Assembly (NCBI GenBank): GCA_963665845.2 | Contig: OY762492.1 | Location: 1,952,001-2,016,000, forward strand | DNA from: Candidatus Poribacteria bacterium | GTDB taxonomy: Bacteria > Poribacteria > WGA-4E > GCA-2687025 | DNA: 64,000 nt | Direction of reading: 5' to 3' | Shown: piece by piece, positions 6,893 through 62,822 of the stretch | How the letters are laid out: the number at the start of each line of letters is the position of its first letter | Numbering within the stretch: position 1 is the stretch's first letter | The notes under the pieces: generated by a model | Told to the model about the DNA's origin: nothing | Seen by the model: the letters and a program-made list of their open reading frames with translations, nothing else | Database searches by the model: none | Position numbers and translations under genes: made by a program

Positions 6893-6921
6893 ATTATGCA
6901 TGGGAACGGGCGGCGCGTCAA
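6893..6921 (-). promoter_or_regulatory. Sigma70-like promoter
   Basis: TTGACG-17 nt-CATAAT upstream of the epimerase gene. Confidence 0.65.
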
Positions 6922-6932
6922 GCGGAACCTAA

Positions 6933-7352
6933 CAGACCTCATGTTAAAAGTTGAGACATTTGAACCGACGATCGCTTTATTCATGGGAAAAAGGCTCCGC
7001 CAACCAGGCCGTCATTCCCGCGCAAGCGGGAATCCAGAGGCGCCGCCGAAACCGTCTGCTGTCTGAACTAGGATTGCCAAGATTGAAAAGATTGCCAAGA
7101 GGATTCCCGTAAGCCGCGCTCTTGGCAATCTTAATCGTCCTTCCATCCCAGTTCAAACAAGCGCAACCCGCGCGCCAAACCCCCTAGCCCCTTACGCCTA
7201 AAGTTGGGACATTTGAACCAACGATCGCTCTATTCATAGGAAAAGGCTCCGCCAACCAGACCGTCATTCCCGCGTAAGCGGGAATCCAGAGGCGCCGCAG
7301 AAGACGTCTGCGTTCGCCCGCCGGCATGTCCTAACTAAAGACGTAAGGTCTA
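6933..7352. mobile_element. Composite MITE-like/REP element
   Basis: Degenerate termini CAGACCTCATGTTAAAAGTTGAGACAT and ATGTCCTAACTAAAGACGTAAGGTC; two CGTCATTCCCGCG(C/T)AAGCGGGAATCCAG hairpins at 7010 and 7262 inside a duplicated unit. Confidence 0.7.
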
Positions 7353-7536
7353 TTGAAGCGGTTGATGGGCGACAAGGAGCCGCTGTTTAGGCATATCGCC
7401 AAACGGCAAGGCGGTGAACTGCCCATGCGCCCCGTTTCGTTGTTTCCGTAGGCCGTCCGCCGTTAATCCTCAATGAGTCCCAAATCCAGCTCAATGATTT
7501 TGAAATCGGGATGATCTTTTTCTCCCCATCGAATCG

Positions 7537-8355
7537 CTAAGGCTTTGTTTTGACGCGCGTTTCTACCCCTTCAAGCTCGTCAATCTCGGCGCGAACATCT
7601 TGATATTCAGCCTCCAACGATTCGCCCGTTGCCATCCGCTCCAGTATGTCCAGCTCCTTGCTTCGAAGATTTTCCAATGTAAGGCGGCCCGATTCTGACA
7701 ATCGCCGCTTCATTTGGTATCGGACAACCACTTCAGTATGCGGTTTTTCTATCGTGTATATCTCGCCATTTGGCAGCTCAAACACATTGCCTTGCGCTGT
7801 TGGAGGCAGGCGGCCCGCCCGAACCAACATGGATGTCGGGTTGAAATTGGCGATTGTGCGCTGATCTTGGAAAAAAATCATTGCGGTCGTCAATTCGGGG
7901 CGTACGTTGTCGACAATGCGTTCTTGGATATTCAAGAACGCCTGCAATCTCGCATTGATCTCCTTGACGCCCTCGCTCATCAAGCGATCGTATTCGATAA
8001 GCATGAGCCGCGCATATTCATCCAAGGTTGCGTCCAACGTCTGATATTTCAGCTCGCTGATGTCGGATGCCAAAAAAGGCGTCGTTTCATGCGGTTGGGC
8101 GGCAACCTCTGTTTCCGGCGTCTGTTGCGTCTGCGTTTCCACAGACCTTGGCGAATCGCGATCTTTTTCGGATTCTTCCGACCGGTCAACAGATTCTGAA
8201 GGCTTCGCCGTAATCTCCTGTCTTGCGGGCAACGGACTTTGCCCTGCGGAGCCGGGGTCATGATCCTCTTGACTGTTTAACATCCACCAAATCAAGGCGG
8301 CCGACGCAATGCACCCCGCCGCTAGAATGATCGCCCATCGATGTTTTGTCTTCAT
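7537..8355 (-). CDS. Hypothetical membrane-anchored protein (possible 3' frameshift)
   Basis: N-terminal hydrophobic helix, low-complexity linker, AGGAG RBS and promoter upstream. Confidence 0.7.
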   Translation of the reverse strand: MKTKHRWAIILAAGCIASAALIWWMLNSQEDHDPGSAGQSPLPARQEITAKPSESVDRSEESEKDRDSPRSVETQTQQTPETEVAAQPHETTPFLASDISELKYQTLDATLDEYARLMLIEYDRLMSEGVKEINARLQAFLNIQERIVDNVRPELTTAMIFFQDQRTIANFNPTSMLVRAGRLPPTAQGNVFELPNGEIYTIEKPHTEVVVRYQMKRRLSESGRLTLENLRSKELDILERMATGESLEAEYQDVRAEIDELEGVETRVKTKP

Positions 8356-8416
8356 GAGGGAATCTCCTGCGTTAGCCCAGTTAAACCGCTTTTAGCCCAG
8401 ATAAACCGCCTATGAA

Positions 8417-8445
8417 ATTATAATACGGACTTTCTAACAGCGCAA
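8417..8445 (-). promoter_or_regulatory. Sigma70-like promoter
   Basis: TTGCGC-17 nt-TATAAT. Confidence 0.7.
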
Positions 8446-8455
8446 CCTTGCAACT

Positions 8456-8546
8456 CTGACCTCACGTCTTAAGTTGGGACATGTCGGCATGCGAACGCGG
8501 ACGTCTTCTGCGGCGTCTCTAGATTCCCGCTTACGCGGAAATGACG
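8456..8546. mobile_element. MITE-like element end plus CGTC REP
   Basis: CTGACCTCACGTCTTAAGTTGGGACAT at 8456-8482, identical (reverse complement) to 41054-41080 and 47277-47303, followed by a REP hairpin. Confidence 0.75.
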
Positions 8547-8774
8547 GAGAGGGAAAGCGGAAATGACGGAGAGGGAAAGCGGAAATGACGGAGAGGGAAA
8601 GCGGAAATGACGGAGAGGGAAAGCGGAAATGACGGAGAGGGAAAGCGGAAATGACGGAGAGGGAAAGCGGAAATGACGGAGAGGGAAAGCGGAAATGACG
8701 GAGAGGGAAAGCGGAAATGACGGAGAGGGAAAGCGGAAATGACGGAGAGGGAAAGCGGAAATGACGGAGAGGGA
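8535..8774. repeat. 22-bp tandem repeat, 11 copies
   Basis: Unit GCGGAAATGACGGAGAGGGAAA starting at 8535, 8557 ... 8755; unit is one REP arm plus 10 flanking nt. Confidence 0.95.
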
Positions 8775-8812
8775 GGGGCGCGGCAGGCTAAGGGCGGACG
8801 GCGTCCGCCGCT

Positions 8813-9961
8813 TTATGGAGGCGGGAAGCGGACGCGGCGCCCCGCCATAAAATGCGGCTCTCCGCCGCGGTCTAGATGATGCCAGCGCGGAGAGTAGCCG
8901 TAAATGAGCCAGCCCTCCCGTCCGTTCGGCTCGTCCATGATGAGGGTCGGGTGCCATGCCAGCTCCTGATACGGAACGGCGACGGAGAATGCGCGCACAA
9001 CCCGAACAGGCTTTGACCAGTCGATTCCGTTCTCCGACGTTGCGACGTAGATGCCGCTGCGCAGCGGTTTCATTGGCGGGTCGGCGCCGGCGTATTCGCG
9101 CCATGCGTTCATATTAAAAAACATGACATACCGCTCCAGCGCCGGAACCCATACAACATGCGGGAAGGTGGCGTCCGCGCCGATATTCAGCCCCGACATG
9201 ACAGGGTCGTCCAGACCTCCCATGCCCGGTTCGCTGAAGGCGCCGCCGCGCCATTTATGCCAGGCTTCAGGGGCGGGCGGCTTGCCGTTTTGAATGTCGG
9301 CGCGGGCAACGCAGATCTGAACGCCGCGCCCCTCCGCCCGCGAATGATCCACATAATACAGCAGCAGAAAGCCGCCGCCGCGTCCAAGCGTCAAACACGC
9401 CTCCCCGGCGCCTTGGTCCGGCATGCCGCCTGGCTCCTTCGCTTGACGGCTGCGCAAAGCGACTCCCGTCTTAACAAACGACCGCCCTTCGTCCATCGAG
9501 ACGGCGGACCCGATCAGCGCGTAGTAGCCCGGCACCCCTGGACCGACATCCGCCATGCCTTCATGGTCTTCGGCGTGGTAGACGGCGTAAAGCGTTCCGT
9601 CTGGGAAGCGGTGTACTCCGCAGACGCCGGCGTATCCGTTGTCAAACTCGCCGGGGCGCCCCGGCGCGAGAACCTGCGCGCCCGCCCGCAGCGAGCGCAT
9701 GTCCTCCCCCTCAAAGAGATAGACCGCCGTCCCCGCCGTGACGAGAAGACGCAGCGGACGCCGACTCAACAGCGCGCATGCCGTGTCGGGGAAGTAGCTC
9801 AACCCGCTTTGAGCGCGCGTCAACAGCGTCTCCTGGGCGGACAGTTCCATCGGAACGCCGCCCGTCTCGACCCTCAACGGCTCCGACCCCCAAGCCGAGC
9901 ATGCGAGCCATATCAAAAACGCCGCCGCGCGTTCAGTCCCGCCGCTCTTGGTACGCCGCAT
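8813..9961 (-). CDS. Secreted five-bladed beta-propeller glycoside-hydrolase-like protein
   Basis: Signal-peptide-like N-terminus; FDNGYAG, YHAEDH, AVSMDEGRSF, ATSENGIDWS motifs; family not resolved. Confidence 0.6.
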   Translation of the reverse strand: MRRTKSGGTERAAAFLIWLACSAWGSEPLRVETGGVPMELSAQETLLTRAQSGLSYFPDTACALLSRRPLRLLVTAGTAVYLFEGEDMRSLRAGAQVLAPGRPGEFDNGYAGVCGVHRFPDGTLYAVYHAEDHEGMADVGPGVPGYYALIGSAVSMDEGRSFVKTGVALRSRQAKEPGGMPDQGAGEACLTLGRGGGFLLLYYVDHSRAEGRGVQICVARADIQNGKPPAPEAWHKWRGGAFSEPGMGGLDDPVMSGLNIGADATFPHVVWVPALERYVMFFNMNAWREYAGADPPMKPLRSGIYVATSENGIDWSKPVRVVRAFSVAVPYQELAWHPTLIMDEPNGREGWLIYGYSPRWHHLDRGGEPHFMAGRRVRFPPP

Positions 9962-11345: not shown

Positions 11346-11366
11346 ATGGGTCTCCTTACGTGTTGC

Positions 11367-12629: not shown

Positions 12630-12866
12630 AGCATACAGCGACGCCGCCTAGTTTAGCATAGATTGGAGCAGAATGCGTTTCTATGTTCATGGCGCGGGCG
12701 GAAGGGCGGGAAGGCGGGGTTTGCCCGCCCGTTATTCTTCGGCGGGGGCGTTCTCCTTCGTCGGCGCGCCTGCCCCAACTAAAGCCGCAAGGTCAAACGC
12801 GAAGGACTCGCGCTCTGTCCAAAAGAGATATACAATAACAAAAAAAACGGCACTGGAGCGAAAGCG

Positions 12867-13625
12867 ATGGAGCGCATCTTTCACCCATATGCGTTTGGCG
12901 AACGGGAAAAGCGGAGGATGGATCATGACGGGCATTATCTGCTGCCAGGCGTCATGACGCAGACGGCGCAGGAAAAAATGACGGAAGCGCTGCGCAGCGT
13001 CCAACAGCTGAGCGCGCAAACAGGACCCGACGAACCGCGCCATCCGCAGCGATATTCCGCCGAATGGAACGAGTATCTTGCGAGCCTGATTGCCCATCCG
13101 CAACTGCTTGAACTGGCGCGGCGCATCCTCGGCGAAAACATCCGCTACGATCATTGCGTCGCGCTGAACCGACCGGGCGGCAACGGCGGCATCGGCTGGC
13201 ATAGCCACGCTTACAGCGACGACGACCCGTCCCTCGGCTTTGCGCGCATCTTCTTTTATGTGAACGGCTTTGAACCTGGGGACGGCGGCTTGAAGGTGTC
13301 GGCGGGGAGCCATCTGTATCGGGACGCGCGCATTCATGGGGGAACCGACGACGACCTGCGCAGCGGCTGGCTGTCGGGGAAAACGCATCTGAAGACAGGC
13401 GAACCGCTGTCGATACAGGAGCTGTCGGCGCCGGCGGGAACGGTCGCGCTCATGTGGACGCACGCCGCCCATGCGGTGAGTCCGCGCCGGCAAGGCAGCC
13501 CGACCCGCTGGACGGTTGTCTACGCATACCGCAACCCAGGGCGCCCGTCCGGCGCGCGCTGGATCGGCGAAGCGTTTGAAAAGAACCCGCCGCCCGGCGC
13601 CGAAGGCCTCATGAGTTTGATGTAG
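12867..13625 (+). CDS. PhyH-like Fe(II)/2-oxoglutarate dioxygenase family protein
   Basis: DGHYLLPGV; GGLKVSAGSHL; AGTVALMWTHAAH; distal Arg in PTRW. Confidence 0.8.
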   Translation: MERIFHPYAFGEREKRRMDHDGHYLLPGVMTQTAQEKMTEALRSVQQLSAQTGPDEPRHPQRYSAEWNEYLASLIAHPQLLELARRILGENIRYDHCVALNRPGGNGGIGWHSHAYSDDDPSLGFARIFFYVNGFEPGDGGLKVSAGSHLYRDARIHGGTDDDLRSGWLSGKTHLKTGEPLSIQELSAPAGTVALMWTHAAHAVSPRRQGSPTRWTVVYAYRNPGRPSGARWIGEAFEKNPPPGAEGLMSLM

Positions 13626-13697
13626 GCAGGCGGCGGAAGCGATGTAGGTTGACTTTAAGCCGCATGGCGCGCTACATAATTATTTGGAGGAAATGAT

Positions 13698-14984: not shown

Positions 14985-14985
14985 T

Positions 14986-16523: not shown

Positions 16524-16533
16524 ACGGAAACGG

Positions 16534-18265: not shown

Positions 18266-18373
18266 ACGCATGCCCCGCCGCAGGCGCGCAGGCGCGAATA
18301 GAGGGCGCGACGCTGGCAGATAGTACGCTCATGCGATGTGATTCATTTTGCGTGACGGCCCGCCGATCCAGAC

Positions 18374-18463
18374 CGTCATTCCCGCGTAAGCGGGAATCTA
18401 GAGGCGCCGCAGAAACCGTCCGCGCCCGCCCGCTGTCATGCCCAACTAACGACGTAAGGTCAG
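18374..18463. mobile_element. CGTC REP plus MITE-like element end
   Basis: CGTCATTCCCGCGTAAGCGGGAATC ... ATGCCCAACTAACGACGTAAGGTCAG. Confidence 0.7.
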
Positions 18464-18473
18464 AGGTCAAACG

Positions 18474-20233: not shown

Positions 20234-20608
20234 TCAACAGCACCCTTTGCGCGGTCTGATTCTTGCGATGACGCGGTAGGCCGCTTCGGCGAGCGGCGCC
20301 AAGACGGGCAGCTGAAGCAGCTGTCCAAGCCATCGCCGCCTCGGCAGCCGAGATAAGATGCGCCCCGCCGCCGCCGCGCCGCGGTATGTTTTTCCAAACT
20401 CCACCGCATGAATCGCGCGTCGCGCCTCTTCAGCCGACAGGGAGAGCCGCGCCAACGCCGCCTCGTCCTGAAGCGGTATGAAATGGACGGCGCCGTCTAT
20501 ATCCAAAGCTGACCAGCGCGCCGCCGCGCGTCGACACCATCCGCATTCGGCGTCGTACACTGCGACTAGGCGGCTCGCCGTTTTTGCTTTTTCAGCCTGT
20601 CTTTCCAT
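20234..20608 (-). CDS. DCC-family (DUF393) thiol-disulfide oxidoreductase
   Basis: YDAECGWC (DxxCxxC), FIPLQ, AYRVIARIR; start MERQAEK at 20608. Confidence 0.85.
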   Translation of the reverse strand: MERQAEKAKTASRLVAVYDAECGWCRRAAARWSALDIDGAVHFIPLQDEAALARLSLSAEEARRAIHAVEFGKTYRGAAAAGRILSRLPRRRWLGQLLQLPVLAPLAEAAYRVIARIRPRKGCC

Positions 20609-21157
20609 ATGTCTTTCTGGCGAACGCGGACGGTTTCTGCCGGGACTCTGGATTCCCGCTTGCGCGGGAATGACGAAGAGCGGCGCGCCGCCGCGCGTCG
20701 GCGCCATCCGCATTCGGCGTCGTACACTGCGACTAGGCGGTTTGCCGTTTTTGCTTTTTCAGCCTGTCTTTCCATATGTCTTTCTGGCGAACGCGGAAGG
20801 TTTCTGCCGGGACTCTGGATTCCCGCTTGCGCGGGAATGACGAAGAGGGGCGCGCCGCCGCGCGTCGACACCATCCGCATTCGGCGTCGTACACTGCGAC
20901 TAGGCGGCTTGCCATTTTTGTTTTTCAGTCTGTCTTTCCATACGCCGCGCTGTCAATACCTAAAGTCTGACCTTCTGTCTTTAGTTGGGACATTCCGCCT
21001 AGTGAACGCGGACGGTTTCTGCGACGCCTCTGGATTCCCGCTTGCGCGGGAATGACGAAGAGCGGCGCGCCGCCGCGCGTCGGCGCCATCCGCATTCGGC
21101 GTCGTACACCGCGGCTAAGCGGCGTGGCGCTTGTGTTTCGCCTGCCTGTCTTTCCAT
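20516..21157. repeat. Four copies of the DCC gene 5' end separated by REP hairpins
   Basis: Start-codon copies at 20608, 20775, 20941 and 21157; REPs near 20648, 20815 and 21030; element end at 20967. Confidence 0.9.
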
Positions 21158-24284: not shown

Positions 24285-24288
24285 CGTC

Positions 24289-25607: not shown

Positions 25608-25695
25608 CGTCATTCCCGCGTAAGCGGGAATCTTAAGGCATCGCAGTCGCTGCGCCTGTTTTAAACCCCCCTAGCCCCCCTTTTCAAGGGGGGAA
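25608..25695. repeat. CGTC REP plus CCCCCTTTTCAAGGGGG hairpin
   Basis: Both motifs recur elsewhere in the window. Confidence 0.8.
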
Positions 25696-25752
25696 TCGGA
25701 CGCTCCACGCCGCGAATATCCCTTATGGGAGTACTACCAGAAATCTTAACCG

Positions 25753-34632: not shown

Positions 34633-34685
34633 AAAAATAAGCGCAGAACCGTTCACGCAAATTGCTAACCGAAGGCGGCGAAAAC

Positions 34686-35456
34686 ATGGAAACCGTTCAG
34701 GGCATGCCAGTTCTCGGCTTGATAAAGCATGTCATCCTGCCGCTCGGCGAGATTCCGAAGACGGGTTTGATAGCGGGTCGGGTACGGAGCGTTAAAACGG
34801 TCCAATGGGCGTTGCAAAACAACAACGGCAAAGCGCTGCTTCTGGCGCAAAAAAATGACGCCGTCCGCCCAGGCGGCGACGACTTTTACGATGTCGGCGT
34901 CGCCGCCGAGCTGACCGAGCCGATGGAGGTGAACGAGGAGATTCAGTTCATCCCGATCGCCAAGTCGCGCGCGGTCGTCGCGCGTCTGGACGACAGCGGC
35001 GGCATGCTCACCGCCGAGGCGCGCCTCGTCCAAGACGAGCCGATGCCGTCGTCCGAAAAAGGAGAAGCGGTACAGCTCTCCCTAAAACTGCTTGAAGCGT
35101 TTGAACAGTACTGCGGCAAAACAAGCAAAGAACTTAGCCCCGACGATCAGACCAGCCTCGCCAACGAGACGGAACCGGGGCGCCTCGCCGACCGCATCGC
35201 GTTTTACTGCTACAAGCCCAAGCCGAAAGAGTCGCGCCATCGCTATCTGACCTATCAGCAGCTGCAGCGCGTCCTGGAAACGCTGGATCCGCTCGAACGG
35301 CTCCAGACCGTGTATGATATGACGACAGAGCTGCTGGAGCGCCGCTCTATGGAGGAAAATCTTAGGACTATGCTCGTTCAAGTTTCCATACTTCAGGAGA
35401 CGTTGTCCCAACTTCAGAAGACGCTGCAGGATTCTCTTGAGACCTTAAAGCCTTAA
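34686..35456 (+). CDS. Stand-alone Lon N-terminal (substrate-binding) domain, paralog of the adjacent lon
   Basis: Highly similar to the Lon N-terminus (METVQG...DDQTSLANETEPGR...LTYQQLQRVL), then a unique coiled-coil tail; no Walker A or protease domain. Confidence 0.85.
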   Translation: METVQGMPVLGLIKHVILPLGEIPKTGLIAGRVRSVKTVQWALQNNNGKALLLAQKNDAVRPGGDDFYDVGVAAELTEPMEVNEEIQFIPIAKSRAVVARLDDSGGMLTAEARLVQDEPMPSSEKGEAVQLSLKLLEAFEQYCGKTSKELSPDDQTSLANETEPGRLADRIAFYCYKPKPKESRHRYLTYQQLQRVLETLDPLERLQTVYDMTTELLERRSMEENLRTMLVQVSILQETLSQLQKTLQDSLETLKP

Positions 35457-35600: not shown

Positions 35601-38126
35601 ATGGCAGCTGATCAAAGCGCCTCGACCCACTACCGATATATGGAAACCGTTCAGGGCATACCGGTTCTCGGCTTGAAGGAGTACGTCGTCCTGCCGCTGG
35701 GCGCGTTTCCCAATTCGGGCTTGAGAGCGGGTCGAAAACGAAGCGTCAACGCTGTCCGATGGGCTTTACAAAACAACAACGGCAAGGCGCTGCTTCTGGC
35801 GCAAAAAAACGCCTCCGCCCATCCCACCCCAGACGACTTTTACGATGTCGGCGTCGTCGCCGAGCTGACCGATCCGATGGAGGTGAACGAGGAGATTCAG
35901 TTCCGACCCATCGCCAAGTCGCGCGCGGTTGTCACGCGCCTGGACGACAGCGGCGACATACTCACCGCCGATGTGCGCGTCGTCCAAGACGCGCCGATAC
36001 CCGCCTCCGAAAAAAGAGAGGTGGAGCAGCTCTCCCAAAAACTGCTCAAAGCGTTCGAATACTACTACCAAAAAACGAACCGAGGACTCAGCTACGACGA
36101 TCAGACCAGCCTCGCCAACGAGACCGAACCGGGGCGCTTCGCCGACCGCATCGCGTTTTACTGCTACAAGCCGAAAGATTCGCGCAACCTCCACCTGACC
36201 TACCAGCAGCTGCAGCGCGTTCTGGACACGCTGGACCCGCGCGAACGGCTCCAGAAAGTGTATGAGATGACGATGGAGCTGCTAGACCTCGCCTCCATCG
36301 AGGAGAAGCTCTCGGCGCAGGTGAAGGAGCAAGTGGAAAAAACGCAGCGCGAATACTACCTCAGCGAAAAACTGAAGGCGATCCAAAAGGAGCTCGGACG
36401 CGACGGCAGCGACACCGAAGAACTGCGCGAACGCGTCGAAAAGGCGAACATGACCGAAGAGGCGGAAGAGAAAGCGCTCAAAGAGATCGACAGGCTTGAC
36501 ATGCTGCCGCCGATGTCGTCCGAGGCGGGCGTCGCGCGCAGTTATGTGGACTGGCTTCTGTCGCTTCCGTGGGACACGAAAAGCGACGCTTCGGTCGATA
36601 TCGGCGTCGCCGCCGATATGCTGGACGAAGACCATTACGGGTTGAAGAAGGTGAAGGAGCGCATCCTCGAGTACCTCGCCGTCATGAAACTGGCGGGCGA
36701 ATCGCGCGGTCCGATTCTCTGCTTCGCCGGTCCGCCCGGCGTCGGCAAGACCTCTCTGGGCAGGTCCATCGCGCGGGCGACAGGGCGCGAGTTTGTGCGC
36801 ATGTCTCTCGGCGGCGTGCGCGACGAGGCGGAAATTCGCGGACACCGCCGAACCTACATCGGCTCCATACCGGGGCGCATCATGCATGGCATCCGCGACG
36901 CGAAGACGAAAAATCCGTTCTTCCTGCTGGATGAGGTGGACAAGATGGGGCGCGACTTTAGAGGCGACCCCGCCGCGGCGCTCCTGGAGGTGCTGGACCC
37001 TGAGCAGAACAACACTTTCCGCGATCATTATCTGGATGTGGCGTTCGACCTGTCCGACGTCATGTTTTTGACGACGGCAAACGTCCTGCCGGCGATACCG
37101 CCGCCGCTGCAAGACCGCATGGAGATCATTGAGCTGCCTGGATATACGGAGTTTGAAAAAGGCAAGATTGCGCGCCATTTTCTGATCCCGAAACAGATCA
37201 AGCAGCACGGGTTGCAGAAAGCGAAGATACGCATCACGGACGGGGCGGTCAGCGCGGTCATTCAGTCCTACACGCGCGAGGCGGGCGTACGCGGGCTTGA
37301 GCGCGAAATGACGAAGATATGCCGAAAGATCGCCCGGCAAATCGTGGACGACTCGCCGAAAAAGAAAACCAAAGCGCGCAAGGACGAAGCGGATAAAGAG
37401 AACGGCAGCGAGAAAAAAGGCGTCTCCGTCACGGCGCGCAACATCGCCCAGTATCTCGGACCGCCCCAATACGCCGCGACAAAAGCGGAGAAGACCGACC
37501 AGATCGGCGTCGCGCAGGGGCTTGTCTATACGCAGGTCGGCGGCGATGTGATCTCCATTGAAACGACCATGGCGTCCGCGGACAAGGCGAAGTTGACCCT
37601 GACCGGACGGCTCGGCGAAGTGATGAGCGAGAGCGCCCAGACCGCCCTCAGCTGCATCCGCTCCAAGACGAAAGAGTACGACCTGGAGCCGTTCGACTTC
37701 AACCGCTTGGACATGCATATCCATGTGCCGGAGGGCGCCGTGCCGAAGGAGGGACCCTCCGCCGGCATCACGCTCGCCGCGGCGATGCTCTCCTCGTTGA
37801 CAGGGCGTCCGGTGCGCAAGGATGTGGCGATGACGGGCGAAATCACCCTGCGCGGCAATGTGCTGCCCATCGGCGGACTGAAAGAAAAACTGCTCGCGGC
37901 GCACCGCGTCGGCATCAAGGAGGCGCTGATACCGAAAGGCAATGTCAAAGACCTGGACGACATACCGGCGGACATCCGCCAGGATATGAAGATTCAACCG
38001 GTTGATCATATCGACCAGGTCATTGAGCGCGCGCTGCTGCCGAAGGCGACTGAAGAAAGCGGCGTGGAGGCGCCGGCGGCATTCCCGGCGGCGCCGCCGA
38101 ACCCGACGCCCCCTCCGCCGAATTGA
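35601..38126 (+). CDS. lon: ATP-dependent Lon protease
   Basis: GPPGVGKT; IRGHRRTY; LDEVDK; PKEGPSAG; IGGLKEK. Confidence 0.97.
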   Translation: MAADQSASTHYRYMETVQGIPVLGLKEYVVLPLGAFPNSGLRAGRKRSVNAVRWALQNNNGKALLLAQKNASAHPTPDDFYDVGVVAELTDPMEVNEEIQFRPIAKSRAVVTRLDDSGDILTADVRVVQDAPIPASEKREVEQLSQKLLKAFEYYYQKTNRGLSYDDQTSLANETEPGRFADRIAFYCYKPKDSRNLHLTYQQLQRVLDTLDPRERLQKVYEMTMELLDLASIEEKLSAQVKEQVEKTQREYYLSEKLKAIQKELGRDGSDTEELRERVEKANMTEEAEEKALKEIDRLDMLPPMSSEAGVARSYVDWLLSLPWDTKSDASVDIGVAADMLDEDHYGLKKVKERILEYLAVMKLAGESRGPILCFAGPPGVGKTSLGRSIARATGREFVRMSLGGVRDEAEIRGHRRTYIGSIPGRIMHGIRDAKTKNPFFLLDEVDKMGRDFRGDPAAALLEVLDPEQNNTFRDHYLDVAFDLSDVMFLTTANVLPAIPPPLQDRMEIIELPGYTEFEKGKIARHFLIPKQIKQHGLQKAKIRITDGAVSAVIQSYTREAGVRGLEREMTKICRKIARQIVDDSPKKKTKARKDEADKENGSEKKGVSVTARNIAQYLGPPQYAATKAEKTDQIGVAQGLVYTQVGGDVISIETTMASADKAKLTLTGRLGEVMSESAQTALSCIRSKTKEYDLEPFDFNRLDMHIHVPEGAVPKEGPSAGITLAAAMLSSLTGRPVRKDVAMTGEITLRGNVLPIGGLKEKLLAAHRVGIKEALIPKGNVKDLDDIPADIRQDMKIQPVDHIDQVIERALLPKATEESGVEAPAAFPAAPPNPTPPPPN

Positions 38127-38147
38127 TCGGCGGCGCCGCACTCAATG

Positions 38148-38355
38148 CTGACTCATGCAGAAAGTTGGGACATTTGAACTGATGATCGCTCTATTTATGG
38201 GGAAAAAGCGTCGCCAATCAGACCGTCATTCCCGCGTAAGCGGGAATCTTAGGCGCCGACCAGACCGTCATTCCCGCGTAAGCGGGAATCTTAGGCGCCA
38301 CAGGCGCTGTCCGCGTTCGCAACCAGAATTGTCCCAACTCTAAAGGTAAGTTCAG
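38148..38355. mobile_element. Complete MITE-like element with two internal REPs
   Basis: Imperfect inverted termini CTGACTCATGCAGAAAGTTGGGACA / TGTCCCAACTCTAAAGGTAAGTTCAG; 42-bp internal REP duplication. Confidence 0.7.
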
Positions 38356-38360
38356 TCTCG

Positions 38361-40885: not shown

Positions 40886-40920
40886 ACACTTCCCAACCAG
40901 ACCATTCCCCGCTTCCGTAA

Positions 40921-41080
40921 AACCCCCCAGCCCCCCTTTTCAAGGGGGGAGTCCAGAAACCGCGCCCCAACCGCTGTTATTGGGCTATTCGTCATTCCCG
41001 CGCAAGCGGGAATCCAGAGGCGCCGTAGAAGAGGTTCGCGTTCGCATGCCGAGATGTCCCAACTTAAGACGTGAGGTCAG
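40921..41080. mobile_element. Hairpin plus REP plus MITE-like element end
   Basis: CCCCCTTTTCAAGGGGG, REP at 40990, terminus 41054-41080. Confidence 0.75.
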
Positions 41081-41089: not shown

Positions 41090-41118
41090 TTGACGTAACG
41101 CCCGTCTTGCGCTATGAT
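41090..41118 (+). promoter_or_regulatory. Sigma70-like promoter of tyrS
   Basis: TTGACG-17 nt-TATGAT. Confidence 0.75.
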
Positions 41119-45028: not shown

Positions 45029-45041
45029 GCAAAAAGCGAAA

Positions 45042-45189
45042 CTGACCTCATGCTAAAAGTTGGGACATTTGAACGGAAAAAGGCGTTGCCAACCAGGCCG
45101 TCATTCCCGCGCAAGCGGGAATCTAGAGGCGTCGCAGAAGACGCTCGCGTTTGCCAAGCGGAATGCCTCAACTAAAGCGCTACGGTCAG
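45042..45189. mobile_element. Complete MITE-like element with possible 6-bp target-site duplication
   Basis: CTGACC...GGTCAG termini, central REP; GCGAAA on both flanks (45036-45041 and 45190-45195). Confidence 0.72.
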
Positions 45190-45223
45190 GCGAAACTGAA
45201 CGTTATCACGAAACGGACGGAAC

Positions 45224-46834: not shown

Positions 46835-47303
46835 CATTCCCGCGCCTTCTCCCCGTCATTCCCGCGCCTTCTCCCCGTCATTCCCGCGTAAGCGGGAATC
46901 CAGAGGCGCCGCAGAAGACATCCGCGTTCACCTCAAACGTTCATCCTACCCGCCGTCATTCCCGCGCCTTCTCCCCGTCATTCCCGCGTAAGCGGGAATC
47001 CAGAGGCGCCGCAGTCGACATCCGCGTTCACCTCAAACGTTCATCCTACCCGCCGTCATTCCCGCGTAAGCGGGAATCCAGAGTCTTCTTGCGGCGCTGA
47101 AAACCCTCCTAGCCCCCCTTTTCAAGGGGGAACGGCCAGCGACGCGCAAGCGGGAATCCAGGGTCTTCTTACGGCGCTGAAAACCCCCCTAGCCCCCTTT
47201 TCAAGGGGGAACGGCCAGCGACGCGCAAGCGGGAATCCAGAGGCGCCGCAGAAGACGTCCGCGTTCGCATGTCGAAATGTCCCAACTTAAGACGTGAGGT
47301 CAG
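46835..47303. repeat. Expanded REP cluster ending in the MITE-like terminus
   Basis: Nested 22-bp, 100-bp and 79-bp direct duplications around REP and CCCCTTTTCAAGGGG hairpins; terminus 47277-47303. Confidence 0.85.
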
Positions 47304-47367
47304 CGCTTGCCCTTGACAAAACGGCGCAAACGACGCATATTCTACTGTAGACAACGCGGAGAAACGC

Positions 47368-50283
47368 ATGGCGCATCACGCCGAAACGAACCTGAACTAT
47401 GTCCTCGCCGACATCCTGCAGGAGATGGCGCCGAAGAGCCGCATGAAGGCAGAAAACACCAGGGTCCTCCGCGAAGGCAGAAGCTATCAGCCCGACATAC
47501 TCATTGCGTCAAGCGGGCGCTCCCCTGTCATCATCGAGGCGGAATATGAACCCGCGCGGGATGTCGAAGAGGAAGCGAAACAGCGGCTCGGCGCCAAACC
47601 TGAGGGGCAGACGCGCCCGGTGGAAGCGGTCGTCGCGCTGATCTATCCAGAAGAGCTGGAAACGGCGGGCGATCTCAAGGCGGAGATGAATCAGGCAATT
47701 CTCAAGTACTGCTTCTTTCAAGAAGACGCGGACGAAGCGGCGGAGGAACCAATCCGCTTTCCCGAAACCGGATGGCTGGAAGGGACGGCGGAAGACCTGT
47801 CCGATATGGTTCGCATGATTTCGGTTCCGCAAAAAGAGGTGGACAGAGCCGCCGAAGCTCTAGAAAACAGCATCGAACAAGCCGCAAAAGTCCTAGACGA
47901 AGACGCCCAAACGCGCCCCGAAATCTCCAAAGAAACGGCGCGGCTGCTCGGCATGTCGAACGTCCCGCAAACGCGCCGAATGGCATGCGCCATCCTCGCC
48001 AATGCGCTCACGTTTCATGAACGCATCGCGGGCATGCATGGCGGCATCCGCCCCCTTGAGCTGGTTTGCGGCGCGCTCAACCCGCAGAGCGCCATGCTGG
48101 AGGTGTGGAAACAGATACTCAAGATCAACTACTATCCGATCTTCGCCATCGCAAAAGACATCCTGACTCAGCTGCCGTCCGACCTTGCAAGCGCCGTCCT
48201 GTCGCAGCTGCGCCCCGCCGCGCAGGGCGTCCACATCACGAACGCGCATGAGCTGACGGGGCGCGTTTTTCAGCGTCTCATCTCCGACCGCAAATATCTC
48301 GCCACCTTCTACACGCGCCCCAATTCCGCCGCCCTGCTCGCAAGGCTTGCTGTCAGCAAATTGCGCGGCGTCGAATGGAAATCCCGCGAGTCGATTGCGC
48401 AGCTGCGCATTGCCGACTTCGCATGCGGAACGGGCGCGCTCCTCTCCGCCGTCTATGACGTGATCGCAAGCAAACATGAACGAGAAGGCGGAAACACAGA
48501 CGACCTGCACCCTGTCATGATGGAGAAGGTTCTGCGCGGATGCGACGTCATGCCCTCCGCAGCGCATATTGCGAGCGCGACCCTCTCCGGCGCCAGACCC
48601 GACATCGACTACGGCGACTCCAAAATCTACACCGTCCCATACGGGCGACAGAAGGACAACACGGTCAAACTCGGCTCGCTGGAACTGCTGACGCGCAGCG
48701 GCGTCATCGCGCTCTTTAACACCACCGACCCAGGACGAGCCACAGGCAGACACGGCGAAGAAACGGCGACCCGCATCTATGTTGAGATGAAGAATGAGTC
48801 GTTCGACCTTGTCATCATGAACCCGCCGTTCACTCGAAACACAGCAAAAGAAGGCGTCTATATTGGGACCTTTGCGGGCGCATTTGCCGCGTTTGAATCG
48901 ACAATCGAAGATCAACAAGATATGGCGAAACGGATGAAGTCGATTCAATCGAACACATGCTACCACGGGCATGCAGGCATGGCTTCAGCGTTCGCTTCGT
49001 TGGGCGACCGCAAACTCAAGCCGGGCGGCGTCTTGGCGTTGGTTCTTCCCTTGACCGCAGTATCTGGGAAATCTTGGCAGAAGTTTCGGCAGATGCTTTC
49101 TCAAAAATACAGCGGTATAGAGATTGTCAACATTGCAAGCAGCGGAAAAGATGTGTCCTTTTCTTCAGATACCAGCATAGCGGAATGCTTGATGATCGCG
49201 CGCAAATCGGGTCCATCAGGGCGCCGCGCTGTTCATAAGCCGCTCTATCCAGAAGCGCGTTTTATATCGCTGCAGAGTTCTCCCAAAAGCATCGCGGAAT
49301 CTGCCGCCGTTGCAGATCAAGCGATTAAATCGAAAGAAACGCGCCGGCTGGATGAAGGACCCCATGGAGGCGCGCCGATGCGCATAGGAGACGAGTTCTG
49401 CGGATCGTCTATTTCCGCTCAAGTGATGCATGACGGCTCGAAGTGGGGATTGTCGCGCATCGCAGATTATTCGGTCGCGCAAACCGCTTATGCGCTTTCC
49501 CAATCTAAATTATGGCCGCCAGGCTTCTTTGAAGGGCGCGATTTAAAAATTAATCCGCTAGGCAATTTCGCTGATCGAGGTTATCACCATTTAGACATCG
49601 TCGGCAAACCGCCTCAGGGGCCGTTTGATAAACTTCCGCCTAGCTCCACAGCGACGTACCCGTCTCTTTGGAATCACAATGCAAAAAATGAAACGCGGCT
49701 GGTCTGTGAGCCGGATTCACAACTACAAATGAGACCAGGCATGAAAGAGAAGGCGGCTAAAGTTTGGGCAACCGCCAGCCGATGCCATCAAAGCTTAGAT
49801 TTCGGGCTGGGATCGCAGCCCCTATCGGTTGCCTTCACAGACAATAAAACAGCGGGCGGACGCGCGTGGCCAAACGTCATTTTTACTGATCAGCGGTTCG
49901 ATTATCCGTTTACGTTATGGAGCAACAGCGCTCTCGGATTGCTTCTACATTGGTGGCATGGCAGTCGACAGCAGCCTGGAAGAAGCATCATAACCGTATC
50001 CGCCATTAAAACGTTGCCGACGCTAGACCTCCGCGCGCTCACGGACGATCAGCTGTCTCTCGCTGAGGAGATCTTCGAGCGTTTTCGGGATCGAGAATTC
50101 AAGCCGGCGTATATCGCCGACCTTGACCAGGCGCGCGCCGATCTGGACCGCGCCGTGCTGTGCGAGCTGCTTGGCTTCGACGAGTCTGTTCATGTCGCTG
50201 TGCGCAAGCTGTCGGCGAAGTGGGCGGCGGAGCCGTCCGTCCGCGGCGGCAAGAATCGTCCCGACAGCGCGCTTGCTGTCTAA
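47368..50283 (+). CDS. Type IIG-like restriction-modification enzyme (nuclease-like N-terminus, gamma-class N6 MTase, TRD)
   Basis: PDILI...IIEAE; FYTRP; DFACGTG; MNPPF. Confidence 0.82.
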   Translation: MAHHAETNLNYVLADILQEMAPKSRMKAENTRVLREGRSYQPDILIASSGRSPVIIEAEYEPARDVEEEAKQRLGAKPEGQTRPVEAVVALIYPEELETAGDLKAEMNQAILKYCFFQEDADEAAEEPIRFPETGWLEGTAEDLSDMVRMISVPQKEVDRAAEALENSIEQAAKVLDEDAQTRPEISKETARLLGMSNVPQTRRMACAILANALTFHERIAGMHGGIRPLELVCGALNPQSAMLEVWKQILKINYYPIFAIAKDILTQLPSDLASAVLSQLRPAAQGVHITNAHELTGRVFQRLISDRKYLATFYTRPNSAALLARLAVSKLRGVEWKSRESIAQLRIADFACGTGALLSAVYDVIASKHEREGGNTDDLHPVMMEKVLRGCDVMPSAAHIASATLSGARPDIDYGDSKIYTVPYGRQKDNTVKLGSLELLTRSGVIALFNTTDPGRATGRHGEETATRIYVEMKNESFDLVIMNPPFTRNTAKEGVYIGTFAGAFAAFESTIEDQQDMAKRMKSIQSNTCYHGHAGMASAFASLGDRKLKPGGVLALVLPLTAVSGKSWQKFRQMLSQKYSGIEIVNIASSGKDVSFSSDTSIAECLMIARKSGPSGRRAVHKPLYPEARFISLQSSPKSIAESAAVADQAIKSKETRRLDEGPHGGAPMRIGDEFCGSSISAQVMHDGSKWGLSRIADYSVAQTAYALSQSKLWPPGFFEGRDLKINPLGNFADRGYHHLDIVGKPPQGPFDKLPPSSTATYPSLWNHNAKNETRLVCEPDSQLQMRPGMKEKAAKVWATASRCHQSLDFGLGSQPLSVAFTDNKTAGGRAWPNVIFTDQRFDYPFTLWSNSALGLLLHWWHGSRQQPGRSIITVSAIKTLPTLDLRALTDDQLSLAEEIFERFRDREFKPAYIADLDQARADLDRAVLCELLGFDESVHVAVRKLSAKWAAEPSVRGGKNRPDSALAV

Positions 50284-51893: not shown

Positions 51894-52027
51894 GATTTAT
51901 CCGCGCCTACGATACGAACTTCGGCGCTATTTTACCGCGCCCGCCCCTCCATCTCAACTGCGGTGTCTGACGGGAAGTCTCTACAGACGATGACGTTCAT
52001 TTTTGCGCGACGGCCCGCCGATCCAAA

Positions 52028-52162
52028 CCGTCATTCCCGCGTAAGCGGGAATCTTAAGGTTCCGCAGCCGCCTCGCCCGCCCTTAAACCCCCCCAGCCCC
52101 CCTTTTCAAGGGGGGAGTCCAGAAACCCCCCAGCCCCTCTTTTCAAGGGGGAGTCCAGAAAC
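52028..52162. repeat. CGTC REP plus duplicated CCCCxxTTTTCAAGGGGG hairpin
   Basis: Direct motif matches. Confidence 0.8.
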
Positions 52163-52189
52163 CCGCGCCCTACGTCATTGGGCTGCTCA

Positions 52190-55651: not shown

Positions 55652-55658
55652 CGCCGAC

Positions 55659-56693
<1,035 letters not shown>

Positions 56694-56723
56694 GGCGTTT
56701 CTCCAATCGTGTGTGCGGTGCGG

Positions 56724-59279: not shown

Positions 59280-60679
59280 TGCGCCGCGCCTTTCCGGTCA
59301 AAAATTGCCATCTGCGTCGGCGGACCGAGTTCGGCGTCCGGTTCCCCGACAGGGCGCGTCTGGACGCTGTATCCGTACTGTTCAGCGGCGTTGTTGATCC
59401 ATGCCTGAAACTCCGCCCGCGTCCACTCGAATCGGTGATCGGTATGGCGCAGCTTGCCGGGCGGGAGCGTTTCAAAAAGGACGTTGTATTCGCGGTTCGG
59501 CGTTGTGATGACAAGACGCCTCGGCTGCGCCTTTTGAAACAGCGCCATCTCCAGCGCCTTCAGCCTTGGCGGGTCGATATGCTCAATCACTTCGATGAGG
59601 GCGGCGGCGTCGAAACCGTTTAAGCGGCGGTCTTCGTAGGTGAGCGCGGTGTGAATCAGCTGAATCCGTTCGCGGCTTTGCGACTGGCGGTCTAAACGGA
59701 GCCTGCGATGGGCGCGTCCAAGGGCGACTGTGGAGATGTCCGCGCCGACGATCTTCACAAACTGCTTCTCTTTACGAAGCCGCGCCAGCAGCTTTCCGTC
59801 GCCGCAGCCCAGGTCGAGTACGGTTGCCGCGCCGTTCTCTTTTAAAGCTTCCGCCGCGGCGTTCAAGCGTATTTCGTTCAGGCGAACCTTCCTCTCCAGG
59901 GTGCCTTCCCGCGCGGCGCCATGCTCCTCCGTTTCCACCGCTTCGGAGGCGTCTTCGCGCATTCGCGCCAGGGCGGCGCGCACCAGCGGGCGATGCCGCC
60001 GCAAATACCTCTCCGCAATCATCTGCCGCTCTGGATGGTTTTCAAGCCAGTCGCCGCCACGTTTCAGCAGCTTGACCACCTCGTCGTCGCCGACATAATA
60101 ATGTTTCTCATCGTCCAGAACCGGTATCAGCACATAGAGATGCGTCAGCAGATCATGAAGCGGGCGCGTCGTTTTAAAAAGGGCGGTGAAATACTTTGAA
60201 TCGCCCCAGTCGGCGAATTGGGGATCAAGCGGAAGCCGCTCCGTTTCCAGCTCATACCCTAGCGGTTCAAAAAGTCGGCGCAGTACCGTTTCCCCGCCTC
60301 TGCAGGGAAGGGCGGAGAGGCGCGCCTCTAGACGCATCGGCGCGTCAACGCGGTCGGGGCGCGCGTCGCACCGGGCGGACATTGCCGTCCCAAAGACGCG
60401 CGCCAGCGCGACGCTCAAAAAGGAGGAGGCGGCATACGGGCGGTCGTTCACATAGTCAAACAGCGTCCAGCTGGCGCCGCGCCGCCGCCTCCTCGCCAGT
60501 TCCACCGCGTCGATCTCCAGCAGCAGCGCCGCCTCGCAGCGCGTATCGCTCCATGTCGGATAGAACACATGCGCATTTCCAAATTTGAGCGAAAACTCCT
60601 GCGCCCTGCCGGGATGCTTATGCAGCAGATAGCTCAAGTCTTCAGCATGCGGGCCGTCGGCGGCGATGGTCAGCAGCAT
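59276..60679 (-). CDS. hen1: 3'-terminal RNA ribose 2'-O-methyltransferase Hen1
   Basis: YLLHKHP; YVNDRPYAASS; PVLDDEKHY; DLGCGDG; EVIEH; TTPN; RHTDHRFEW. Confidence 0.95.
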   Translation of the reverse strand: MLLTIAADGPHAEDLSYLLHKHPGRAQEFSLKFGNAHVFYPTWSDTRCEAALLLEIDAVELARRRRRGASWTLFDYVNDRPYAASSFLSVALARVFGTAMSARCDARPDRVDAPMRLEARLSALPCRGGETVLRRLFEPLGYELETERLPLDPQFADWGDSKYFTALFKTTRPLHDLLTHLYVLIPVLDDEKHYYVGDDEVVKLLKRGGDWLENHPERQMIAERYLRRHRPLVRAALARMREDASEAVETEEHGAAREGTLERKVRLNEIRLNAAAEALKENGAATVLDLGCGDGKLLARLRKEKQFVKIVGADISTVALGRAHRRLRLDRQSQSRERIQLIHTALTYEDRRLNGFDAAALIEVIEHIDPPRLKALEMALFQKAQPRRLVITTPNREYNVLFETLPPGKLRHTDHRFEWTRAEFQAWINNAAEQYGYSVQTRPVGEPDAELGPPTQMAIFDRKGAAQ

Positions 60680-60687
60680 CGGGCGGC

Positions 60688-62505
60688 TTAACGTTCGCCG
60701 CGTTCAAAATACCGCTTGACGGCGTTTTTATGCCTCGGCAGCAGCTGATGTTTATTCGAGGAGCCGCCGCCCGCTTTGGAGCCGCTCAACACATCAACGC
60801 TTTTCTCCGGCGCCTCGTCGTTCACCATCGGGGCGGAGGAGCTGACCTGGAGCGTTTCGCCGCTGTCCGGCGAGGCGATTTTGGAGAGCGGGAGCGTCTC
60901 CGCGTTGAACTTTGCGTTCTCTTCGGAGGCGGGGTCTTTCCATGTCAACGGGGCGGCGCCCGGACCTCGGTTGATTCCGTACTGCCCTGGTCCCTGATTC
61001 TGCATCCCCGCCATGAGCGATTGGATGGAGCCGCTGTTTCCGCTGCTTCGGCATTCGCTCAAAAACTTTGCCAGCCCTGCGCTGTTGCATTGTCCCAGCT
61101 GTTCGCATTTTTGGAGCGAATCCATCGGTATGAGACCCGCCTCATTCATCTTTGCCAACCGCTCGGACAGCTTGCCTTTCGCTTGGCGCAGCGCGTCGGC
61201 AAGCGAAGCCAGCTGCTCCGGCGACAGCGACTTGGCGCCGTCTTGCGAGAGCGCCTTGCGGAGAGCGTTTGCCAACGCTTCCTGCTGCTCCTTGCTAAGG
61301 CCGTTCTGCCCATTCTGTCCATTCTGCCCGTTCGATTGCGCGGCGTTTTGGTTCATGATGTTTTTCATGGCGCTCATGAGCGATGGGTTGTTCAGCGCGT
61401 TTTCCAGAGCCTTGTTTAAAGCGTTCGCCGTTTCTGGATTGCTGAGCGCGTTTTGCAGAGCCTTGCTTAAAGAGTTTGCCGTTTCTGGATTGTTGAGCGC
61501 GCCTTTCATTGCCTTGCTTAAAGCGTCCGCCAGCGCCGATTTGTCGCCGGCGCCTTCCATCGCCTTGCTTAAAGCGTCTGCGAGGGACGGATCGTTCAGC
61601 GCCTTTTCCAGCGCCTCGGTCAAGGCGTTCGAAAGGGCGGGATTGTTCAGCGCGTCTTCTAGATTCTTGCTCAAGGCGTCCGCCAGCTGCTCATTCTCCT
61701 GCGCCGCCTTGCCGACCATCTCGGACAGCGCCGACATCGCCTCCGCCAGCAGCGATTCGTCCATCATGCCGCTTTCATGAAGAAGCGATTCGGCAAGCGA
61801 TTCGGCGTTGGCAAGGTCTTCGGTTTGCGTTAGCGCCTCTTCGGCGGCTTCTTCGGCGGTCTGTTTCAGCTCTTTTTCAACATGGTCAAGCGCTTCCCAG
61901 GTTTTGGCGGGGTCTTCGCCGGTCGCTTCCTCTTCGAGGCGGTCCAGCTCTTGCTCCAGCTCCTCCACCTTTTCGATCTCAATCTTCTCCTCTTTCAGCG
62001 CGTCGATGCCTTTGGAGAGCTGATCCGTCTCGGCGCTGATGTCAAGCGGTCGGGCGCGCGTCGCGTCCACATACCGCTGCGGGATCAGCAGGCTTGTCAA
62101 AACAAACAGCGCCGCGCCGAGCAGACGCAGAGACGATTTGCCGCTGCGCCACTGAAGCTTGGTCGGCTGCGCCTGCGGCATTTGGTACGCCCAGGCGCCC
62201 AGGTCAACGCTCTCTTCCGCCATGAGAAGCCCGCCCATTTTGCTGCGCCGGTCAATGGCGGCGCGGAAGGCGCTCTTGCTTGGAAGTTGGCGGCGCGCCC
62301 AGTATCCTGCGACAAGGGCGGCGGCGGCAAGTCCAGCGATCCCCCACCAGATGGACGGACGCGGCTGCCCAAACGCGGCGCGCAGCAGAATGACCGCCGT
62401 TCCCCATATCAAGCCCCACACGGCGGCGAGCAATGCCGCGCGTTTGAAAAAAAGCAGCAGGGCGGTTTTGCGTCTCAGTTTGTCGATGGAGGTTCGGCGT
62501 TTCAT
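60688..62505 (-). CDS. Membrane-anchored coiled-coil protein with internal 17-aa repeats
   Basis: Three TM segments; ALxxP repeats; GINRGPGAAPLTW; ends LPRHKNAVKRYF. Confidence 0.82.
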   Translation of the reverse strand: MKRRTSIDKLRRKTALLLFFKRAALLAAVWGLIWGTAVILLRAAFGQPRPSIWWGIAGLAAAALVAGYWARRQLPSKSAFRAAIDRRSKMGGLLMAEESVDLGAWAYQMPQAQPTKLQWRSGKSSLRLLGAALFVLTSLLIPQRYVDATRARPLDISAETDQLSKGIDALKEEKIEIEKVEELEQELDRLEEEATGEDPAKTWEALDHVEKELKQTAEEAAEEALTQTEDLANAESLAESLLHESGMMDESLLAEAMSALSEMVGKAAQENEQLADALSKNLEDALNNPALSNALTEALEKALNDPSLADALSKAMEGAGDKSALADALSKAMKGALNNPETANSLSKALQNALSNPETANALNKALENALNNPSLMSAMKNIMNQNAAQSNGQNGQNGQNGLSKEQQEALANALRKALSQDGAKSLSPEQLASLADALRQAKGKLSERLAKMNEAGLIPMDSLQKCEQLGQCNSAGLAKFLSECRSSGNSGSIQSLMAGMQNQGPGQYGINRGPGAAPLTWKDPASEENAKFNAETLPLSKIASPDSGETLQVSSSAPMVNDEAPEKSVDVLSGSKAGGGSSNKHQLLPRHKNAVKRYFERGER

Positions 62506-62545
62506 TGGGCTATCCTCTCGCGGCTTCTATGTATGGCATATCTTT

Positions 62546-62574
62546 AGTTTAACGTACAGAATCGAACGGCGCAA
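62546..62574 (-). promoter_or_regulatory. Sigma70-like promoter of the coiled-coil/Hen1/Pnkp/MoxR operon
   Basis: TTGCGC-17 nt-TAAACT. Confidence 0.6.
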
Positions 62575-62583
62575 ACCGAATTT

Positions 62584-62822
62584 CTGATCTTACGTCTTAG
62601 TTGGGACATGTCGGCGGGTGGACGCGGACGTCGTCTGCGGCGCCTAAGATTCCCGCTTGCGCGGGAATGACGGCATGGGAGGGCGCGGGAATGACGGCAT
62701 GGGAGGGCGCGGGAATGACGGCATGGGAGGGCGCGGGAATGACGGCATGGGAGGGCGCGGGAATGACGGCATGGGAGGACGCGGATCGTTCCCCCCTTGA
62801 AAAGGGGGGCTAGGGGGGTTTA
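62584..62822. mobile_element. MITE-like end, REP, 24-bp tandem repeat (5 copies) and CCCCCCTTGAAAAGGGGGG hairpin
   Basis: CTGATCTTACGTCTTAGTTGGGACAT; unit GCGGGAATGACGGCATGGGAGGGC at 62661-62780. Confidence 0.82.

Follow-up and report, generated by a model that had tools for sequence, protein, structure and literature searches.

Insertion of an IS4-like element and its MITEs beside predicted σ70 promoters in Candidatus Poribacteria: target-site duplications ending three base pairs upstream of the −35 box

Repeat ends and promoters within the 64-kb window

The stretch of DNA considered here (the window) comprises 64,000 nucleotides of contig C1 (positions 1952001-2016000) from the genome of an uncultured Candidatus Poribacteria bacterium (G000; 3.98 Mb, 60% GC, 90%-complete) and carries a 27-bp repeat end that recurs close to outward-facing σ70 promoters. 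Proteins annotated as RpoD of Candidatus Poribacteria share 78-80% identity with the RpoD region of this genome, which makes that phylum the probable one of the host. The 27-mer is the terminal inverted repeat (TIR) of a miniature inverted-repeat transposable element (MITE) of about 168 bp and of one 1,267-bp IS4-like insertion sequence (IS), and the spacing between these elements and the adjoining promoters is the subject of this article. In agreement with the original prediction, which was made from the letters of the window, exact copies of the 27-mer are located at 8456-8482 (plus strand), 41054-41080 and 47277-47303 (both minus strand), where none would be expected on the basis of 100 shuffles.

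At seven ends, the gaps and the −35/−10 hexamers that had been claimed were all found again. The degenerate TIR of a half element at 6933-6959 (plus strand, outer end 6933) faces an outward σ70 promoter on the minus strand, namely the predicted host promoter TTGACG-17-CATAAT (6893-6921, gap 11) ahead of the open reading frame (ORF) 5825-6901. The intact TIR at 8456-8482 is followed, on the minus strand and at gap 10, by TTGCGC-17-TATAAT, while inwards this half element continues through a hairpin into a 22-bp tandem array. Two further half elements end in TIRs at 18437-18463 (minus strand), with TTGTTT-16-TATACT at gap 10 (18474), and at 20967-20993 (plus strand), with TTGACA at gap 10 on the minus strand and a weak −10 box. 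The intact TIR at 41054-41080 lies at gap 9 from the predicted promoter of tyrS (TIGR00234), TTGACG (41090-41095)-17-TATGAT, and the intact TIR at 47277-47303 lies at the same gap from TTGACA (47313-47318)-17-CATATT, ahead of ORF 47368-50283. Finally, the half element with its TIR at 62584-62610 (plus strand) faces TTGCGC-17-TAAACT at gap 9 on the minus strand.

The remaining ends are less regular. At 7352 and 45042 a TTG occurs at gap 9 without a −10 box, as had been stated. The former bounds a 167-bp MITE (7186-7352, plus strand; C1:1959186-1959352) with two decayed TIRs, an NTS/dRS3 hairpin and no exact target-site duplication (TSD), while the latter bounds a 148-bp MITE (45042-45189, plus strand) that is flanked by 6-bp TSDs, GCGAAA (45036-45195 in total), with the TTG 3 nt past the TSD on the minus strand. 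Three ends had been described as not fitting, which holds for 38147/8 and 45189, both devoid of TTG, but only in part for 38355, where TTGCGC is present at gap 11 without a −10 box; the outermost of these positions, 38147 and 38355, delimit a 209-bp MITE (plus strand) with a doubled hairpin. Two additional degenerate ends had escaped the earlier list: 7186 and the solo TIR at 12770-12796 (minus strand), which has no −35 box at gap 6-13.

Several tandem repeats adjoin these ends. Arrays of 22-bp and 24-bp units derived from half an NTS hairpin are situated directly inward of solo TIRs (8491-8820 and 62635-62808), and the TIR at 20967 sits inserted in a 167-bp tandem repeat with NTS hairpins (20450-21138). 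Neither an Rfam match nor a tRNA was found in the window.

A MITE with exact target-site duplications and a passenger hairpin

Genome-wide, about 500 ends were recovered, and 143 left-right pairs less than 300 bp apart are arranged as inverted repeats with a mean identity of 81%, 97 of them measuring 165-170 bp. Exact TSDs of 5-9 bp flank 55 of the 143 pairs (three of 5 bp, 25 of 6, 20 of 7, five of 8 and two of 9), as opposed to 0.36 for mismatched pairs. Because of these short paired inverted repeats and exact TSDs, the element is assigned to the MITEs, and it displays the features of that class: it is short, non-coding, bounded by TIRs, present in high copy number and flanked by TSDs, empty alleles exist, and an autonomous partner carries the same ends. 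The TSDs are slightly A+T-rich (56%) in a genome of 60% GC. The interior of the MITE is an NTS/dRS3 hairpin with no similarity to the interior of the IS. The repetitive extragenic palindromic (REP) sequence to which the 27-mer had been described as attached is a passenger within the MITE and not the host of the 27-mer.

In addition to the pairs, 225 solo ends occur, and in 183 of these a hairpin half lies at most 120 bp inward. Some MITEs also follow directly upon one another with a few bases in between, as at C1:2966158-2966500 and 3592889-3593181; 11 right-left neighbours lie less than 100 bp from each other. This arrangement suggests that a single promoter received more than one insertion.

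Genome-wide spacing between repeat ends and promoters

An iterated position weight matrix yielded 531 ends, of which the 502 with a score of at least 20 were used, while 29 with scores of 14-20 were dropped. In the resulting alignment, conservation stops abruptly at the outermost base of the TIR, followed by T-rich columns at +10 to +12 and TA-rich columns at +33 to +35. TTG starts at offsets 10, 11 and 12 from 75, 82 and 33 of the 502 ends, respectively, with only 1-19 at any of the other offsets between 1 and 70. For offsets 10-13 taken jointly, this amounts to 204 ends compared to 31.7 after shuffling (maximum 48), and a full −35/−10 pair starting there, i.e. 9-12 nt from the end, is present at 141 ends compared to 2.9 (300 shuffles, maximum 9). 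The original prediction had called for such a genome-wide collection, and the enrichment of TTG and of −35/−10 pairs at a fixed offset is what it anticipated.

NTS/dRS3 hairpins of the same genome that are located away from the ends show no spacing peak (1,078 flanks, maximum 4 at any gap). A second hairpin repeat, the C/G hairpin, has 276 matches genome-wide, with copies in the window at 25659-25705, 40915-40961, 47097-47223 and 52081-52164; the only sign of promoters in its flanks is a slight rise at gaps 34-36 (4, 8 and 6 of 454 flanks).

The −35 box lies three nucleotides past the duplication

The gap equals the length of the TSD plus 3, i.e. the TTG of the −35 box starts exactly 3 nt past the duplication; thus, the gap varies among ends because TSD length varies. 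This TSD+3 rule holds for 38 of the 55 TSD-bearing MITEs of the host. Among the 41 host copies with TTG at gap 8-12, the same 38 obey it, in contrast to 13.5 upon permutation of TSD lengths (maximum 25 in 20,000). Either end may face the promoter (host: left 16, right 21, both 1; other genomes: left 17, right 15, both 1).

The rule extends well beyond the host. In G001, a genome of the same genus with approximately 90% identical DNA, 14 of 18 elements with an exact TSD comply. In other genomes, mostly of Chloroflexota, 80 loci were reduced to 60 with both TIRs and 34 with an exact TSD, of which 33 comply, and in metagenomes, which were analysed afterwards, 80 loci were reduced to 64 and then to 10, all of which comply. 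Cultured carriers of the family include Anaerolinea thermolimosa (L092) and Thermanaerothrix solaris (L067). The 20 genome loci and 16 metagenome loci set aside at the first step lacked two usable TIRs or were duplicates; a further cut, for want of an exact TSD, took out 26 of the 60 genome loci and 54 of the 64 metagenome loci, together with 17 of the 35 elements in G001 and 4 of the 19 copies in the sister clade. The sister clade itself comprises an IS of about 1,337 bp with other TIRs and TSDs of 9-12 bp from three genomes of the host's class (G043, G053 and G027; loci L281-L314), whose transposase shares 23% identity with that of the host (hhalign probability 98.7); 14 of its 15 TSD-bearing copies, out of 19, follow TSD+3. 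Further relatives were noticed in G035 (L004), G037 (L005) and G025 (L008), with 32 matches in G025.

A predicted promoter rather than TTG alone

The hexamers flanking the ends carry a −10 box more often than the background does. For hexamers with 3, 4, 5 and 6 matches, TAnnnT follows after 16-18 nt in 24 of 40, 38 of 59, 34 of 71 and 30 of 48 cases, compared to a background of 190 of 3,387, 202 of 3,901, 118 of 2,317 and 54 of 216. Hence, even the weakest, TTG-only −35 boxes possess a −10 box in 60% of cases at ends versus 5.6% in the background. Moreover, at the 273 ends without TTG the −10 box still peaks at offsets 33-36 (42, as opposed to 5-21 in 22 other windows of offsets).

Empty sites

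The promoters beside the ends are host DNA, as had been claimed, because empty sites exist; the search in related DNA that was suggested at the outset brought them to light in G001 and in the runs X7, X10 and X12. G001 lacks the element at 38147-38355 at the orthologous site. One contig of run X7 spans the interval 38126-38356 with 14 bases, and across the element at 45042 it is shorter by 149 bases. In runs X10 and X12, contigs continue through the position of a MITE at G000:568063, where a single copy of the TSD and an intact −35 box are left. At 6916-6921, G001 retains the −35 box without the TIR, and synteny breaks there. The G001 alignments at the window ends 12796 and 20967 are too diverged to be read.

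Comparing the 35 complete G001 elements with G000 yielded two empty sites, four shared insertions, three sites facing another insert, 22 breakpoints or large indels and four unmapped elements, in a mapping that is uncontrolled (no random sites) and whose 200-bp flanks can map to repeats.

The cognate insertion sequence and its transposase

As stated originally, the cognate transposase is absent from the window; it resides elsewhere in the genome. The single-copy, 1,267-bp element between the paired ends at C1:561322-562588 contains the genome's sole match to PF01609 and thereby supplies the proposed transposase gene bounded by the same termini. The IS end is identical to the consensus MITE end at 28 of 28 positions, and both IS ends face TTG at gap 9-10. 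The IS product of 371 amino acids contains the triad D87, D168 and E267 together with the signature Y260-R263-E267-K274; in an alignment of 70 sequences Y260, R263 and K274 of this Y(2)R(3)E(6)K motif are invariant, while E267 is kept in at least 90%. The best Foldseek match of its AlphaFold model (predicted local distance difference test score 85) is the Tn5 transposase (E 1e-11, TM 0.56), and this modelled fold together with the YREK motif suggests a putative cut-and-paste mechanism with a hairpin intermediate.

With regard to classification, the catalytic spacings of 80 and 98 residues compare with D(60-110)D(100-150)E in IS4, the second being just below the range. The best NCBIfam IS4 model, NF033591, assigns 77.7 bits to the host enzyme, 77-99 to four relatives and 113-121 to the sister clade at a cut-off of 152, and host TSDs of 5-9 bp (mode 6-7) are shorter than the IS4 criterion of about one helix turn (~10 bp). 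With TSDs shorter than those of IS4 and a score below the curated NCBIfam cut-off, the transposase is considered IS4-like but unclassified.

The enzyme is small, at about 330-380 amino acids, and exists in many natural variants. A profile search gave 253 clusters at E <= 1e-30, many of which are fragments. A single-sequence scan of genome contigs detected no relative, whereas an alignment-based scan did. In the host copy (L001) and in P0002-P0008, the reading frame changes at an A run at about codon 321, past the catalytic core, and the C-terminal segment that is conserved in in-frame relatives sits in another frame; the transposases P0012, P0016 and P0061 read through in frame. This frame change may represent programmed slippage in a subgroup.

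Proposed mechanism and alternative explanations

Transposases of the DDE type such as Tn5 attack the two target strands in a staggered manner with a 5' overhang. Class II activators bind at σ region 4 and the proximal site of the α C-terminal domain (α-CTD), and the spot 3 bp upstream of the −35 box abuts these two surfaces. The elements are inserted with a TSD that ends 3 bp upstream of a predicted σ70 −35 box, and docking of the transpososome on promoter-bound holoenzyme is the likely cause, with σ region 4 or the α-CTD as the predicted contact. The promoter-proximal edge of the TSD would correspond to the nick in the template strand, and the fixed event would be the strand transfer at this position, 3 bp upstream of the −35 hexamer; therefore, one active site would be held there while the other slips. 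The end that comes to lie distal to the promoter would carry out the fixed transfer, and slippage of the second transfer by a few bases would account both for the TSDs, 5-9 bp in length, and for the gaps, which span 8-12 nt. In the course of this process, the promoter would stay whole and keep 3+TSD bases upstream, while an UP element or activator site further upstream would be displaced. As the promoter stays whole and retains these bases, the insertion site would constitute a safe harbour. The IS would have moved the MITE in trans. Many MITEs would later have been halved or rejoined by recombination, either between copies or at the NTS/dRS3 hairpin, and solo ends as well as elements with a promoter at both ends would exist because of such recombination.

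Regarding the wider significance of this scheme, the chances appear evenly balanced that a broad branch of Tn5-type transposases, which includes at least two clades with 23% identity and with different TIRs and TSD lengths, docks on region 4 of σ70 like a class II activator and always performs the first strand transfer into the template strand at this position, that RNA polymerase serves as a targeting factor in a manner that evolved apart from the Mutator-like case, and that hundreds of MITEs serve as rearrangement joints by which genes are reshuffled along with their intact promoters.

Several observations weigh against docking on the promoter or qualify its support. The only empty site resolved to the base, at 568063, has its −35 box at TSD+4 instead of +3. 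Among host pairs, 88 of 143 are devoid of an exact TSD, and 17 of the 55 TSD-bearing copies have no TTG at +3 (six with and 11 without a −10 box at the matching place); 284 of the 502 ends lack TTG at gap 8-12, about half being expected to be promoter-distal. The flanking promoters are predicted, i.e. consensus matches only, the intergenic background for the −10 counts was built on a crude ORF map, and the −10 box of the sister clade appears, by eye, to be less regular. As for independence, several of the 34 relatives stem from the same genomes (the sites being independent but the hosts related), and the promoter flank at one of the metagenome sites is also that of L030. Furthermore, the single IS copy of the host, with its frame changed at the A run, is of uncertain present activity.

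An alternative without protein contact, regarded as unlikely, would be that bound RNA polymerase introduces a bend immediately upstream of the −35 box and forms a steric border, with the transposase preferring a bent, accessible stretch. This scenario accounts for the need for both promoter boxes, the free orientation and the slightly A+T-rich TSDs, yet the position set by a purely passive border should vary over more than one base, while the offset stays at 3 nt over TSDs of 5-12 bp and across hosts. Moreover, Mutator-like elements settle 13-17 bp away (PMC3942029), and this difference in distance speaks for docking that is specific to each enzyme. Direct reading of TTG(ACA) 3 bp past the cut by the transposase, with selection purging genic copies, is very unlikely: TTG would lie within reach of the target-capture surface and is the sharpest signal of the target profile, although the profile set was selected on TTG, but a −10 box accompanies merely about 5% of intergenic TTG (25% for perfect TTGACA) versus 48-64% at element ends, and the −10 peak some 33 nt away persists at ends without TTG.

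Random insertion followed by purifying selection just upstream of promoters, or co-option of the TIR as a regulatory site at −45 to −72, could be advocated on the grounds that only 106 of 502 ends fall inside long ORFs, which cover 89% of the genome, and that four of 35 insertions are common to G001 and G000. Selection or regulation, however, would set the distance from the element end, whereas the observed distance tracks the TSD edge (38 of 41 against a permuted mean of 13.5), so that the co-opted regulatory site of the original prediction becomes unneeded. A similar peak is missing from the other intergenic repeats, TSD+3 is also followed by full-length IS copies that have different TIRs and reside in distant phyla, and empty alleles exist, all of which renders selection or co-option extremely unlikely. 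Next to no probability is attached to the notion that the flanking −35 box belongs to the element, or that the latter is a REP/REPIN moved by a REP-associated tyrosine (RAYT, Y1) transposase. The hairpin halves beside most solo ends would suit a REP, but conservation falls to background directly past the TIR, and a RAYT partner, which had been suggested, finds no PF01797 match in the 90%-complete genome, which does contain TIRs, TSDs and a DDE transposase gene bounded by these ends. Both variants were ruled out by empty sites that keep the promoter. Placement of a non-autonomous element by promoter-bound RNA polymerase or σ factor, the other reading offered originally, fits the TIRs, the 5-9-bp TSDs, the cognate transposase and the empty sites, the contact itself being inferred.

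Possible recombination and further observations

TTG on both sides was encountered in 13 of 88 pairs without a TSD but in one of 55 with a TSD (p 0.01). Together with the solo ends and the 22 of 35 G001 elements whose flanks lie apart in G000, these pairs suggest later recombination between copies. The positions of G001 MITEs (loci L102-L199) often coincide with synteny breaks in G000 (the same 22 of 35, uncontrolled).

Elsewhere in the window, an ORF resembling the N-terminal part of Lon (34662-35456) precedes full-length lon (35601-38126), with stretches of 300 nt and 144 nt about 84% identical, and represents a partial duplication. ORF 60688-62505 contains 51-bp (17-codon) repeats at 61385-61687. 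Outside the window, frames of 390-470 amino acids with matches to σ region 4 are clustered at C1:1716339-1726037 and 2454553-2456188, amid 25 such matches in the genome.

Implications and comparison with known systems

At least 141 candidate promoters of this uncultured bacterium can be recognised by the repeat ends beside them. Moreover, the variation in TSD length would reveal which of the two strand transfers is the anchored one and thus provides a one-base prediction for a structure or an assay, so that the base-exact rule makes the idea of guidance by RNA polymerase directly testable. If the targeting proved portable, it could yield a safe-harbour integrase as well as a Tn5-like probe that tags occupied σ70 promoters.

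Integration upstream of promoters has precedents. According to PMC3942029, the TnGBS integrative and conjugative elements (ICEs), ISLre2 (p-MULT 3) and ISKra4 (p-MULT 4) insert 13-17 bp upstream of σA −35 boxes, and contact with RNA polymerase was proposed there for Mutator-like elements by analogy with yeast Ty3. RNA-polymerase-guided integration in bacteria, as put forward for TnGBS and ISLre2, rests in the available text on spacing and on this analogy, and the Tn5-type enzymes would represent a second class. The present elements share with p-MULT 3/4 that DDE elements keep a constant distance from the −35 box of a primary σ factor, on its upstream side, and with the ISKra4 group that members with near-perfect TIRs insert in both orientations. 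In contrast, the enzymes described there are Mutator-like, whereas the host transposase belongs to PF01609 with a Tn5 fold and the 90%-complete genome has no match to the Mutator transposase PF00872; the distance is 13-17 bp from the inverted repeat there and 8-12 nt here; and the available text of PMC3942029 describes no constant offset from the TSD edge combined with TSDs of varying length. Hence, the element works like the p-MULT 3/4 elements without being a member.

NTS/dRS3 hairpins are tied to Ssn nucleases (PMC11893778), and the NTS motif inside the MITE, 866 dRS3 matches on contig C1 and a 105-aa GIY-YIG frame resemble that system. Here, on the contrary, the hairpin is cargo, and NTS copies away from TIRs lack the promoter spacing.

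With the IS4 subgroups IS10, IS50 (Tn5) and ISPepr1 (PMC2266710), the IS has in common the DDE triad, the YREK motif, 5'-CT ends and the Tn5-like fold, while it differs in scoring below every NCBIfam IS4 cut-off and in a TSD of 5-9 bp (mode 6-7) instead of ~10 bp. The word 'promoter' is absent from the main text of PMC2266710, and in a search that left ISfinder, subscription journals and paper supplements aside, published promoter targeting was found for Mutator-like elements only and not for IS4-type enzymes. Taken together, promoter homing is a known habit of mobile elements, which is encountered here in an unrelated enzyme class and with a base-exact rule.

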